A stretch of DNA of 17,813 nt from a virus (Duplodnaviria; Heunggongvirae; Uroviricota; Caudoviricetes). Both the position numbers and the translations under genes were made by a program. Below the pieces are notes generated by a model. That model worked only from the letters and a program-made list of their open reading frames with translations. It did no database searches and was not told where the DNA came from. Positions 11,767-16,568 of this stretch are shown piece after piece. How positions within the stretch are numbered: position 1 is the stretch's first letter; each line of letters begins with the position of its first letter. The stretch lies in the IMG/VR virus record IMGVR_UViG_2529292871_000023; one strand, 5' to 3'.

Positions 11767-11958
11767 GCGAAAACGGTTTGCTGTAACGGCAGAGTTAAGT
11801 AGGATTGCTGCGGGTGCTTGAGGCTATCTGCCTCGGGCATGAACACCAACGGCAGATAGATAAAAGCCCCACCCGACTATAAATCGAAGTGAGGCCCCTA
11901 TATGCTCGTCACATATAGATTGCCTCTTACGGACCGAAAGGTCAAGGAGAAGCAGGCT

Positions 11959-12114
11959 ATGAAGCAGCAAAAGGCGATGTTAATCGCCCTGATCGTCATC
12001 TGTTTAACCGTCATAGTGACGGCACTGGTAACGAGGAAAGACCTCTGCGAGGTACGAATCCGAACCGGCCAGACGGAGGTCGCTGTCTTCACAGCTTACG
12101 AACCTGAGGAGTAA
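11959..12114 (+). CDS. hokD: Hok-family type I toxin (HokD/RelF)
   Basis: 51 aa, MKQQKAMLIALIVICLTVIVTALVTRKDLCEVRIRTGQTEVAVFTAYEPEE, matching recalled E. coli HokD. AGGAG ribosome-binding site. The listed ORF extends upstream in frame to 11902. Confidence 0.85.
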   Translation: MKQQKAMLIALIVICLTVIVTALVTRKDLCEVRIRTGQTEVAVFTAYEPEE

Positions 12115-13996: not shown

Positions 13997-14367
13997 ATGA
14001 CTGAACGCATAGAATTTGTTTTGCCTTACCCGCCGACGGTGAACACCTACTGGCGACGTCGTGGCAGCACATATTTTGGTCAAAAGCCGGTGAGCGTTAT
14101 CGCCGTGATGTGGCACTTATTGTTCGCCAGCAGCGGCTGAAATTAAACCTGTCCGGAAGGCTGGCGATAAAGATTATTGCAGAGCCACCGGATAAGCGCC
14201 GCCGCGACCTGGACAATATCCTGAAGGCACCACTGGATGCGCTTACGCATGCCGGACTACTTATAGACGACGAGCAGTTTGATGAAATCAATATTGTGCG
14301 CGGTCAGCTCGTTTCTGGTGGGCGGCTGGGCGTGAAGATAAAAATCACAGAACTGGAGTGCGCATGA
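13997..14367 (+). CDS. rusA: RusA Holliday-junction resolvase, frame-disrupted as written
   Basis: N-terminus MTERIEFVLPYPPTVNTYWRRRGSTYF stops at 14137. The C-terminal frame (14110..14367) reads ...ERYRRDVALIV...IKIIAEPPDKRRRDLDNILKAPLDALTHAGLLIDDEQ..., matching the RusA core DRRRRDLDN. Adding one base to the T4 run at 14074-14077 or the A4 run at 14082-14085 restores continuity. Confidence 0.75.
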
Positions 14368-15053
14368 ATAACCACTATTTACAGTTTGTGCGTGAGCAGC
14401 TCATTATCGCCACCGCTGATTTGAGTGGGGCAACAAAAGGTCAGCTTGAAGCCTGGCAGGAGAATGCCATGTTCGATACAGGGCGTTACAGGCGAAAAAA
14501 AATCCGGTACCGCGATGAAGTGACTGGAAAAATGATAACGCGGGATAATCCACCAATCCCGGGAAAGCAATCGCTGGCGAAGGTGACGTCAATTCCTCTG
14601 GTCAGTCCGGTTGAGTTTTCGACATCATCGTGGCGGCGGGCTGTTCTGTCTCTTGAAGAACATCATAAAGCCTGGTTGTTGTGGTGTTACAGCGGGAGTA
14701 TTTGTTGGGAATATCAGATCGCGATAACACAGTGGGCGTGGAATGAATTTAATACTCAATCCGGTACCAGAAAAATTGCTGGGAAAACGCAGGAACGCCT
14801 GAAAAAATTAATCTGGCTGGCGGCGCAGGCAGTAAAAGCAGAACTTTTTGGTGGGGAAGGTTATGAATATCAGGAGCTGGCATTACTGGCGGGAGTGACA
14901 ACTAAAAACTGGTCCAAAACATTTACTCGTCACTGGGTTGCAATGAAACACATTTTTCACCGACTGGATAGTGAGGCTTTATTATTTGTAATGAGAACAC
15001 GTTCAAAACAAAAGGCGGCATTTTCAAAGCAAAGTGTTGCAAAAGTAGATTGA
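14364..15053 (+). CDS. Putative late-gene antiterminator (Q-like), assigned mainly by position
   Basis: 230 aa from ATG 14364, which overlaps the rusA stop (ATGA). Lies between rusA and a terminator/tRNA cluster, the canonical Q position in lambdoid phages. No sequence-level match recalled. Confidence 0.45.
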   Translation: MNNHYLQFVREQLIIATADLSGATKGQLEAWQENAMFDTGRYRRKKIRYRDEVTGKMITRDNPPIPGKQSLAKVTSIPLVSPVEFSTSSWRRAVLSLEEHHKAWLLWCYSGSICWEYQIAITQWAWNEFNTQSGTRKIAGKTQERLKKLIWLAAQAVKAELFGGEGYEYQELALLAGVTTKNWSKTFTRHWVAMKHIFHRLDSEALLFVMRTRSKQKAAFSKQSVAKVD

Positions 15054-15116
15054 AAGGCATATATTTCATGCAAATCTGATATTTTGCCGATTTTGTACGT
15101 GATGGCAAAAGCAAAC

Positions 15117-15146
15117 AAAACCCGCCCACAAGCGGGTTTTGTTGTG
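15117..15146 (+). terminator. Intrinsic terminator-like hairpin downstream of the Q-like gene
   Basis: AAAACCCGC-ccacaa-GCGGGTTTT followed by GTTGTG; perfect 9-bp stem with a U-rich tail. Confidence 0.5.
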
Positions 15147-15246
15147 CCACTTATCTCGGATAGACATGGTGAATGCGCTGGTGGAGGAGATAAGGGTGAT
15201 TTTTGTATGCTTGCAACATTGATTTCGTCGTTATTATTCAGCAATC

Positions 15247-15322
15247 GGCCCTTTAGCTCAGTGGTGAGAGCGAGCGACTCATAATCGCCAGGTCGCTGGT
15301 TCAAATCCAGCAAGGGCCACCA
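15247..15322 (+). tRNA. tRNA with anticodon CAU, ileX/ileZ-like (tRNA-Ile2 lysidine type, or Met)
   Basis: Hand-folded cloverleaf: acceptor GGCCCTT/AAGGGCC, D-stem GCTC/GAGC, anticodon loop CTCATAA, T-arm GCTGG-TTCAAAT-CCAGC, discriminator A plus encoded CCA. Strong resemblance to E. coli ileX. Confidence 0.85.
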
Positions 15323-15323
15323 A

Positions 15324-15399
15324 CCGCCACTAGCTCATCAGGAAAGAACGTCACCCTTTAAGTTGAGTGTGCGAGGTTCGAGTCCCCGGTGGTGGTCCA
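15324..15399 (+). tRNA. tRNA-like element, probably a degenerate or pseudo tRNA
   Basis: Acceptor CCGCCAC/GTGGTGG (one G-U pair), T-loop TTCGAGT, encoded CCA. D-stem and T-stem each carry a mismatch, and the best anticodon stem (CACCC/GAGTG) encloses an 8-nt loop TTTAAGTT. Confidence 0.4.
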
Positions 15400-15412
15400 T
15401 TATCGGTATTCT

Positions 15413-15486
15413 GCGTTGTTAGCTCAGCAGGACAGAGCAATTGCCTTCTAAGCAATCGGTCACTGGTTCGACTCCAGTACAACGCG
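15413..15486 (+). tRNA. tRNA-Arg (anticodon UCU)
   Basis: Hand-folded: acceptor GCGTTGT/ACAACGC, D-stem GCTC/GAGC, anticodon stem ATTGC/GCAAT with loop CTTCTAA, T-arm ACTGG-TTCGACT-CCAGT. CCA is not encoded. Confidence 0.8.
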
Positions 15487-15502
15487 CTACACTTATTTTC
15501 CC

Positions 15503-15526
15503 GGCTCGCTTTTGCGGGCCTTTTTT
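15503..15526 (+). terminator. Rho-independent terminator after the tRNA cluster
   Basis: Stem GGCTCGC/GCGGGCC with 4-nt loop TTTT, followed by a T6 run. Confidence 0.6.
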
Positions 15527-15658
15527 GTATCTGCGCCACGCCCGGCGCATACCAACCACAGAGCCTTTCGGGGGGGAGCTTACGGAGTGGTCAGTGTGAC
15601 TTTCTCTGTGGGCAGATCGCTCCCGGGCGTTGGCTCACCCACCCAAAGGAACGTCACG

Positions 15659-16090
15659 ATGTTTGGTATTTTTGGTAAAAAAAGCCCGCAGAGCGGCAGT
15701 GGAAATTAAAAAGTTTGAGAAACGTGATCTGGCACAGGCGGTTATTAATGCTGCCTATCTGGTGGCCTATGCAGATGGTGAATGTGAGGCTTCAGAGAAA
15801 GCGAAGATCGAGCAGGTCTTGCGTAACCAGCCTGCGTTGTCCGCGTTTACGTCAGAAATTAATGCGATTAGCGCAACCATTATCGGTCAGCTGGATACGA
15901 ACTTTAAAACTGGTCGTCGAGCGGCGTTACGTGAGATCGAGGATGTGAAACACGATACGCGTGAAGCGGAAGATGTGCTGGATGTGGCGGTGGCCATTGC
16001 GAGGCAGACGGCGAAATAGAGCCGGAAGAGCGCAAGGTGCTGGAAGAGATTGCCGGTGTTCTGGGTCTTCGTCTGGAGAATTACCTGTGA
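15659..16090 (+). CDS. TerB-like (tellurite-resistance TerB domain) protein, frame-disrupted twice as written
   Basis: Intact reading MFGIFGKK + ARRAAVEIKKFEKRDLAQAVINAAYLVAYADGECEASEKAKIEQVL...DVLDVAVAIAR + ADGEIEPEERKVLEEIAGVLGLRLENYL shows the two ADGExxxxE repeats typical of TerB. Breaks are at the A7 run 15677-15683 and near GG at 16002-16004. Listed ORFs 15512..15709 and 15630..16019 are the pieces. Confidence 0.6.
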
Positions 16091-16254
16091 CGGTAAAACT
16101 GCGCCTGACTGTGGCTGCACTCCTGCTGTTTCTGGTGGTGATGGTGGATTTCACCAGCAGAATCATGTCGGTGCTGGCGGATGGGGGGCTGGTCTGCGGC
16201 ATTATGGTATTGCTGTGGCCGGTGATAAAAAGAAACAGCCTGCATAATGCTTGA
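16087..16254 (+). CDS. Small hydrophobic protein with two predicted transmembrane segments
   Basis: GTG start overlapping the TerB-like stop (GTGA). 55 aa, MTVKLRLTVAALLLFLVVMVDF...GGLVCGIMVLLWPVI. Confidence 0.4.
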   Translation: MTVKLRLTVAALLLFLVVMVDFTSRIMSVLADGGLVCGIMVLLWPVIKRNSLHNA

Positions 16255-16568
16255 TTTTTTTGTTTGCTGTTTATTAAAAACACTTCTGCATGGTGAATCC
16301 CCCTGTGCGGTGGGGCAATCAGCAAGAAGGAATATGGGGTAATCGCGGATTCAGGTGCTGATACTGAATTCACCGGGAGGCACCCGGCACCATGCTTTGC
16401 CACAAAAGTGTTATTTCTGTTTTTCTCAAACTATCATCGTTATCCCTTTATTTTCGGCTGCGCATGGCGCGGCCTTTTTTTTACGACCAGCCACTGGCAG
16501 ATGGTCATCCTGTGATTTGATTCCGCTTCCGGCTTTTTAACTCTGTTCCTCTACACGGGAGAAATTCG

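Follow-up and report, generated by a model that had tools for sequence, protein, structure and literature searches.

Lambda-like prophages of E. coli carry a well-known cluster of three tRNA genes, ileZ-argN-argO, after the late-gene antiterminator gene Q; this cluster was reportedly first described for phage 933W. In Stx phages, for example Stx2a_F349 (AP012530) and phage 2851, the three genes follow the Q promoter and terminator and precede the first cargo gene of the late region, stx, and the middle gene is an intact tRNA-Arg gene (anticodon UCG, anticodon loop CTTCGAA, 43 bits). Our literature search retrieved no paper that uses the gene names ileZ, argN and argO. The equivalent place in Stx2 phages is covered in a study of O157:H7, which shows pR', qut, tR'1 and tR'2 there, places a 'pS tRNA promoter' in the tRNA region and reports polymorphisms within and beside the first tRNA-Arg gene (PMC2858043).

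The window (the whole 17,813-nt stretch of DNA analyzed here) contains a cluster of this type at the same position, as proposed in the original prediction; the trio is real but ordinary. The order, the spacing and the place after the Q promoter and terminator are those of the Stx phages, the two clusters align base for base between Q and stx2A of Stx2a_F349, and both precede the first cargo gene of the late region (Table 1). The ileZ genes are identical, the argO genes differ at two positions within the gene, and the middle genes are homologous (91.9% identity over a 135-nt span including the flanks). Unlike the Stx-phage cluster, that of the window has an argO without an encoded CCA and a middle gene with a UUU-type loop and a broken anticodon stem, and its downstream cargo is a TerB-like pseudogene instead of stx. 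We consider it very probable that this is a lambdoid-prophage tRNA cluster at ompW in which the middle gene has become a non-decoding pseudo-tRNA of Lys-type argN-family descent. The cluster is widespread, with 1,405 E. coli genomes matching at least 80% of a 361-nt cluster query. Among species-representative genomes, a search pattern anchored in ileZ and argO gives no matches, and a second pattern gives three loci (E. coli, Shigella flexneri and, divergent, Citrobacter amalonaticus).

Table 1. The tRNA cluster of the window and its flanking features (positions in the window).
Feature	Position	Strand	Evidence
Q late-gene antiterminator gene, 231 aa	14358..15053	+	ORF; Pfam PF06323 (Phage_antiter_Q), E 1e-90; homologues annotated as Q in relatives
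PR'-like sigma-70 promoter, TTGCAA-17 nt-TATATT, overlapping the end of Q	15037..15065	+	Consensus scan
tR'-like hairpin, AACAAAACCCGC-CCACAA-GCGGGTTTTGTT, with T-rich tail (putative terminator)	15114..15150 (hairpin 15114-15143)	+	13-pair stem
Remnant dedicated tRNA promoter, TTGCAA-15-nt spacer-TATTAT	15211..15237	+	Alignment with relatives
ileZ-type tRNA, anticodon CAU (tRNA-Ile2), CCA encoded	15247..15322	+	ARAGORN; Rfam 72.5 bits, E 1.7e-14 (whole window)
Degenerate middle gene, probable pseudo-tRNA from a Lys-type (UUU, C33) argN-family allele	15324..15399	+	ARAGORN, Rfam, alignments
argO-type tRNA-Arg, anticodon UCU, no encoded CCA	15413..15487	+	ARAGORN; Rfam 68.1 bits, E 2.9e-13 (whole window)
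Intrinsic-terminator-like hairpin, GGCTCGC-TTTT-GCGGGCC plus T run, closing the tRNA unit	15503..15527	+	Hairpin scan

The cluster belongs to the late region of a lambdoid prophage at ompW. The same prophage and locus are found in PPompW (LC567818; USDA5905, NZ_CP039837; STEC/O55:H7), and the whole 17.8-kb window is 98.4% identical to this ompW-integrated prophage of E. coli O55:H7, with 97.3% identity in the cluster. The 265 substitutions between the two are concentrated in blocks and are accompanied by 19 indel events, a patchy pattern that would be expected of mosaic lambdoid prophages. Several of these differences affect other genes. Owing to the lack of a single T near 14078 compared to the O55:H7 prophage, rusA is broken up into overlapping ORFs at 13997-14140 and 14110-14367, of which the latter alone matches Pfam RusA. 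The TerB-family ORF on the 3' side of the tRNA genes (15630-16254) is truncated at 129 aa, with a G missing near 16000 relative to the same prophage; in relatives, the TerB-family gene is annotated as a pseudogene with an internal stop. At position 2478, within a block of dense substitutions in the exonuclease gene, a 22-nt stretch of the O55:H7 prophage, CTTTCTGGTCGTTCTGTTCCGT, is absent.

Both the Q-like gene and the hairpin after it, which had been noticed from the sequence, are present. The location of the promoter that overlaps the end of Q suggests that it is the Q-modified late promoter, from which the tRNA genes would be transcribed; in relatives, a small dedicated promoter would contribute as well. 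The scan lists the tR'-like hairpin for the minus strand alone; in the plus-strand sequence, its CCCGC/GCGGG core is followed by TTTTGTTG, and it might act as a terminator. The dedicated promoter has the form TTGCAA-17-TATTAT in PPompW, phage Evi and UMNK88, and 2 nt of the spacer are missing in the window, leaving 15 nt, so that it is not called by the consensus scan, which accepts spacers of 16-18 nt only. Such a shortened spacer should weaken the promoter, and the cluster may therefore rely on read-through from the Q-controlled late promoter.

ARAGORN calls exactly three tRNA-like genes in the segment 15247-15486, with boundaries matching those originally proposed. The expectation that the first and the third fold cleanly is confirmed: both have a high-scoring cloverleaf with a standard anticodon loop (ARAGORN anticodons CAT and TCT), and for the argO-type gene the cloverleaf is also the minimum-energy structure. 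The exact ileZ sequence of the window is annotated as tRNA-Ile in RefSeq E. coli genomes and recurs in 156 of 178 related loci. A minus-strand match over ileZ to the Rfam family 'Plastid-ycf2' (36 bits compared to a cut-off of 65.7) was rejected as the tRNA seen in reverse. The ileZ product would be an ileX-like tRNA-Ile2, read as Ile after lysidine modification, for AUA codons, and the argO product would be a tRNA-Arg for AGA and AGG codons. The 3' end of argO reads ...CAACGC-G-CTA, with CTA in place of CCA after the discriminator G at 15486, in agreement with the initial proposal that this gene does not encode CCA; the T at position 76 that creates CTA is found in 23 of the 178 loci. Transfer RNAs without an encoded CCA undergo 3' trimming and CCA addition by a host enzyme, and the argO transcript therefore needs both. 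In the coding genes of the prophage with 98.4% identity, ATA, AGA and AGG occur at 10.8, 10.3 and 5.9 per 1000 codons, levels several-fold above the E. coli K-12 averages, and the two outer tRNAs might thus supply rare-codon tRNAs for phage genes in which these codons are common.

The middle gene is of a different quality. ARAGORN reports it as 'tRNA-???' with a two-base anticodon 'tt', which corresponds to a 6-nt loop, so that all three loci are called and the middle one does not receive a standard cloverleaf. There is no match to the Rfam tRNA model (RF00005) at the gathering threshold of 29 bits; a hit of 23.1 bits (E 0.014) appears only in a permissive search of the 361-nt segment. As had been noticed by manual folding, all three internal stems are mismatched. 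The D stem (GCTC/GAAC) contains a C11-A24 mismatch, with the A at 15348, and the T stem (CGAGG/CCCCG) contains an A-C mismatch at 15374/15386. The anticodon stem is uneven, with the four bases TCAC (15351-15354) on one side and the five bases GTTGA on the other; alignment with intact relatives shows that one A has been lost between 15353 and 15354, converting the 5' strand from TCAAC to TCAC. The 7-nt loop CCTTTAA is unchanged compared to these relatives. The gene thus lacks a 5-bp anticodon stem with a 7-nt loop that includes U33, position 33 being a C, as in all UUU-type relatives. The remainder of the body is preserved, including the 7-bp acceptor stem (CCGCCAC/GTGGTGG, with one G-U pair), U8, G18-G19, the T loop TTCGAGT, which conforms to TTCRANY, and the 3' TCCA. 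The 8-nt anticodon loop of the original prediction does not hold: the base is deleted from the stem, the loop has 7 nt, and an 8-nt loop can be obtained only by closing it with a C-U mismatch.

The energy of the anticodon arm was evaluated by constrained folding of the window sequence in three registers, namely a 7-nt loop with a bulged U, the 6-nt loop of ARAGORN with a C-U mismatch, and a 3-bp stem with a 10-nt loop, the last of which is equivalent to the 8-nt loop closed by C-U. All three registers give +0.8 to +1.8 kcal/mol, compared to -2.9 to -7.0 for intact alleles; the anticodon arm is thus unlikely to be stable. The whole cloverleaf is predicted at -9 to -10 kcal/mol, compared to -22.8 for the unconstrained minimum of the same sequence, which is a non-cloverleaf fold. 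Unconstrained folding is not informative for this family: it gives a cloverleaf as the minimum for the UCU allele only and not for argN of the Stx phages, because of a T-stem A-C pair that is present family-wide, and the z-scores are weak. We therefore relied on constrained energies and homology.

Three anticodon states share one tRNA body among the argN-family relatives. The UCG allele (loop CTTCGAA; Rfam 43.0-45.5 bits) is found in Stx phages and CFT073, the UCU allele (CTTCTAA; 56.7 bits) in isolate F1022, and the UUU allele (CCTTTAA, with C33; 37.0-44.4 bits for intact alleles) in phage Evi and UMNK88; the intact UUU form is annotated as tRNA-Lys in RefSeq. Compared to the UCG form, the UUU form shows compensatory changes in the anticodon stem, from TCAGC/GCTGG to TCAAC/GTTGA. 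Across 43 distinct 77-nt alleles of the family, 95.7% of the cloverleaf cells pair, compared to 29-54% with slid partners, and in the anticodon stem 99.1% of the cells pair, with compensatory changes at two pairs; this pattern argues that the argN-family middle gene represents a genuine tRNA family. The copy in the window corresponds to the UUU form minus one stem A and with GAAC instead of GAGC in the D stem. Its nearest intact relative (97.4%) is the Lys-type allele of ileZ-Lys-Thr-Gly clusters in E. coli UMNK88, 537-20 and AR_0077 and in Shigella flexneri SFBU1023, which has the same tRNA body, loop CCTTTAA and D loop. Unlike the copy in the window, this allele retains a complete anticodon stem of 5 bp, reaches 44.4 bits and carries the annotation tRNA-Lys, and it is followed by Thr and Gly tRNA genes, whereas the middle gene of the window is followed by argO. 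In UMNK88, the GAAC D stem coexists with an undamaged anticodon stem, and the gene is annotated as tRNA-Lys nonetheless; therefore, the stem deletion is the decisive lesion in the window. Judging from these alignments, the middle gene of the window is a descendant of a Lys-type (UUU) allele and not a copy of the Arg-UCG gene of argN. The likeness to ileZ-argN-argO that was initially perceived thus stands as far as homology to argN is concerned and fails for the Arg(UCG) form, given that the loop is CCTTTAA and not CTTCGAA.

The middle gene of PPompW is also degenerate and unannotated in RefSeq, like that of the window; ARAGORN and the DDBJ records assign it to tRNA-Lys, and the Rfam tRNA model gives no match. 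Its lesion is a different one, namely deletion of a D-stem T with an intact anticodon stem. The middle alleles of the window and PPompW differ at three positions (an additional T, G>A and the missing A), all within 19 nt, and each of these is the state found in a lineage of O157:H7 and other STEC, for example ATCC 35150, in which the middle gene is reduced to a remnant by a 10-nt deletion. Both this remnant and the window lack the A and have GAAC in the D stem, and the 19-nt leader directly before ileZ in the window (TCGTTATTATTCAGCAATC) is identical to that of the 10-nt-deletion lineage and unlike that of PPompW. In contrast to the window, the remnant is missing the anticodon loop together with the 3' strand of its stem, its T loop contains one additional G, and no tool calls a tRNA in it; in other words, this sister lineage later lost the anticodon altogether. 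The leader and the 5' half of the middle gene in the window are therefore from a lineage other than PPompW. Because the missing A, GAAC and the leader are common to the 10-nt-deletion lineage, the deletion is inherited and is not a read error, and the suggestion of an indel artefact in the middle gene is not supported. The window thus carries a recombination tract, or an ancestral state, of the 10-nt-deletion lineage. The exact middle allele of the window gives no matches in IMG/VR and JGI metagenomes and does not occur in 5,426 complete E. coli genomes, the closest full-length sequence there being 97.4% identical; the window thus represents a previously unseen but unremarkable allele of a decaying middle gene.

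For a broader view of the middle slot, we collected 179 loci with ileZ and argO anchors, all three genes being extractable from 178, which were used for the diversity estimates. In the middle slot, ARAGORN calls Arg-UCG in 95 of the 179 loci, Lys-UUU in 18, Arg-UCU in one and '???' in two (the window and L158), and finds no tRNA in the remaining 63. The ileZ, argO and middle genes comprise 9, 22 and 59 distinct sequences and have nucleotide diversities of 0.0045, 0.030 and 0.18, respectively, the value of the middle gene being approximately 40 times that of ileZ. Searched as exact alleles, the intact UUU form (L058; RefSeq tRNA-Lys) is present in 279 complete E. coli genomes, the Stx-type UCG form (RefSeq tRNA-Arg) in 177, the D-stem T deletion of the PPompW type in 222 and the 10-nt deletion that removes the anticodon in 391, the last two without RefSeq annotation. 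Independent lesions of the middle slot include the D-stem T deletion, the 10-nt deletion, a scrambled form and the stem deletion of L158. The latter, from IMG/VR, is an Arg-UCG allele whose anticodon stem has lost 1 nt on the 5' side (CCAC for CCAGC) and which has a two-base ARAGORN anticodon, and constitutes an independent parallel to the lesion in the window. In the scrambled allele, which is present in five of the collected loci and in approximately 30 more IMG/VR loci, the D/anticodon region is unrecognizable and a poly-G run of 5 to 14 G takes the place of the T arm. Thus, the middle slot is under relaxed constraint, and its decay is a recurrent event among related prophages. For four lesions (the D-stem T deletion, the missing A, the 10-nt deletion and the L060 type), the allele type of origin can be recognized, and all four lie on the UUU-type body. 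E. coli has many tRNA-Lys genes and an extra Lys(UUU) is redundant for translation, which would explain this distribution.

The favored scenario is that an ancestor of the middle gene would have switched its anticodon from UCG (Arg) to UUU (Lys-type, C33) and subsequently lost the stem A. With four bases facing five, no stable 5-bp stem with a 7-nt loop can form, and the RNA should therefore not decode, that is, should be a pseudo-tRNA. This RNA is probably still transcribed together with its neighbors and may remain a substrate of RNase P, since its acceptor stem, T arm and CCA are intact. Among the options initially listed, the pseudo-tRNA is favored by the stem deletion and the score of 23.1 bits, and neither the suppressor nor the artefact is. 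What counts against a pseudo-tRNA is that ARAGORN still reports a tRNA-like gene and that the acceptor stem, T loop, U8, G18-G19 and CCA are intact; a 4-bp stem with a bulged U and a normal 7-nt loop can also be drawn, although it is predicted to be unstable. The same observations, along with a loop, CCTTTAA, identical to that of alleles annotated as tRNA-Lys in RefSeq, could indicate a working tRNA-Lys that tolerates a bulged or shortened anticodon stem. This is very unlikely considering the Rfam score under the cut-off, the positive arm energy in all registers and the subsequent loss of the anticodon in the sister lineage with the same deletion; moreover, the 99.1% pairing in the anticodon stem of the 43 intact alleles implies that the family does not tolerate a broken stem. 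Less likely still is a sequencing or assembly error in an intact Lys-type gene. The 19 indel events relative to the closest prophage include several single-base ones, two of which split rusA and the TerB-like ORF, and the exact allele was found nowhere else among IMG/VR, the JGI metagenomes and the 5,426 E. coli genomes; yet the three differences from PPompW within 19 nt, together with the leader, reproduce the 10-nt-deletion lineage, whereas random errors would not reproduce another natural haplotype, and the window departs from its nearest relative in patches, as is typical of mosaic prophages. The probability of a suppressor tRNA, whether of the frameshift type, with an enlarged loop, or of the nonsense type, is close to nil. 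An 8-nt loop, CCUUUAAG, which contains UUA, can be drawn if two mismatched end pairs are ignored. Frameshift suppressors of the sufD/sufJ type have an 8-nt loop with an inserted base on an intact 5-bp stem, so the likeness is superficial and arises only when the stem ends are left unpaired: the change in the window is a stem deletion without a loop insertion, the 8-nt loop is closed by C-U, and the best fit of ARAGORN is a 6-nt loop. All 132 loci with an intact stem have the 7-nt loop NCTTTAA, always with the anticodon UUU. A suppressor-type tRNA was accordingly rejected, the loop CCTTTAA being that of intact relatives, with no stop-codon anticodon in register.

A reading that is compatible with the pseudo-tRNA is that the non-decoding middle RNA is kept as an RNase P processing signal through its acceptor/T-arm minihelix and CCA, with RNase P cutting one base past the ileZ CCA and thereby freeing ileZ and splitting the transcript. 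E. coli RNase P separates some polycistronic tRNA transcripts, and a single base lies between the ileZ CCA and the middle gene. The strands of the acceptor stem are kept in 179 of 179 loci, heavily decayed ones included, and no IMG/VR locus has the middle gene cleanly gone (no matches for ileZ-argO gaps of 1-61 nt). On the other hand, the acceptor stem makes up approximately one-fifth of the gene, and its escape from all of the approximately nine disruptive lesions is not significant (P of about 0.15, an estimate); the number of lesions is too small to establish a constraint on the acceptor strands. The T arm is hit by lesions in the 10-nt-deletion and scrambled forms, and the absence of clean deletions may simply reflect the short time since decay. 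Overall, a retained processing role appears unlikely.

The intact Lys-type relatives, as opposed to the broken copy in the window, invite speculation on a link to defense. The intact allele is carried by five of the collected loci and approximately 100 IMG/VR loci, usually in an ileZ-Lys(UUU)-Thr(UGU)-Gly cluster with Thr(UGU) as the next gene. All 132 loci in which the TCAAC/GTTGA stem is intact have C33, and the 3' side of this stem reads G39-U40-U41. The cut site of the PrrC nuclease is next to position 34. PrrC cleaves tRNA-Lys, and phage tRNAs with altered anticodon loops have been proposed to evade such anticodon nucleases (PMC10264068). In E. coli tRNA-Lys(UUU), the AriB nuclease of the PARIS system cuts between positions 40 and 41, and a change of U39 abolishes cleavage; the other prime target of AriB is tRNA-Thr(UGU) (PMC12409363). 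C33 and G39-U40-U41 coincide with sites used by these tRNA-Lys-cutting defense nucleases. It is conceivable, if unlikely, that the intact ancestor, a tRNA-Lys(UUU) on the body of a tRNA-Arg, serves as a nuclease-resistant back-up tRNA-Lys that is lost where it is not needed, as in the window; if so, the middle gene of the window would be the wreck of a defense-evading tRNA. These features of the Lys-type allele would be worth testing against tRNA-cutting defense systems.

For annotation, the locus comprises two working prophage tRNAs and one pseudo-tRNA, a point of little importance for the window itself. Where ARAGORN gives a '???' tRNA, a conservative caller would probably make no call, just as the other decayed forms have none in RefSeq. 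More generally, decay and changes of anticodon (UCG, UCU and UUU) are concentrated in the argN slot of the ileZ-argN-argO cluster, and unannotated remnants of the middle gene are present in hundreds of E. coli genomes. The argO gene is not always complete either: in five of the 178 loci, it is truncated just past the anticodon and unrelated sequence follows. Apart from the tRNA genes, the Rfam matches in the window are DicF (4667-4718, minus strand, 76.7 bits), the sok antitoxin RNA beside hokD (11812-11961, plus strand, 103.9 bits) and STnc100 (16259-16431, plus strand, 100.8 bits), all of which are typical of Qin-like and lambdoid prophages.
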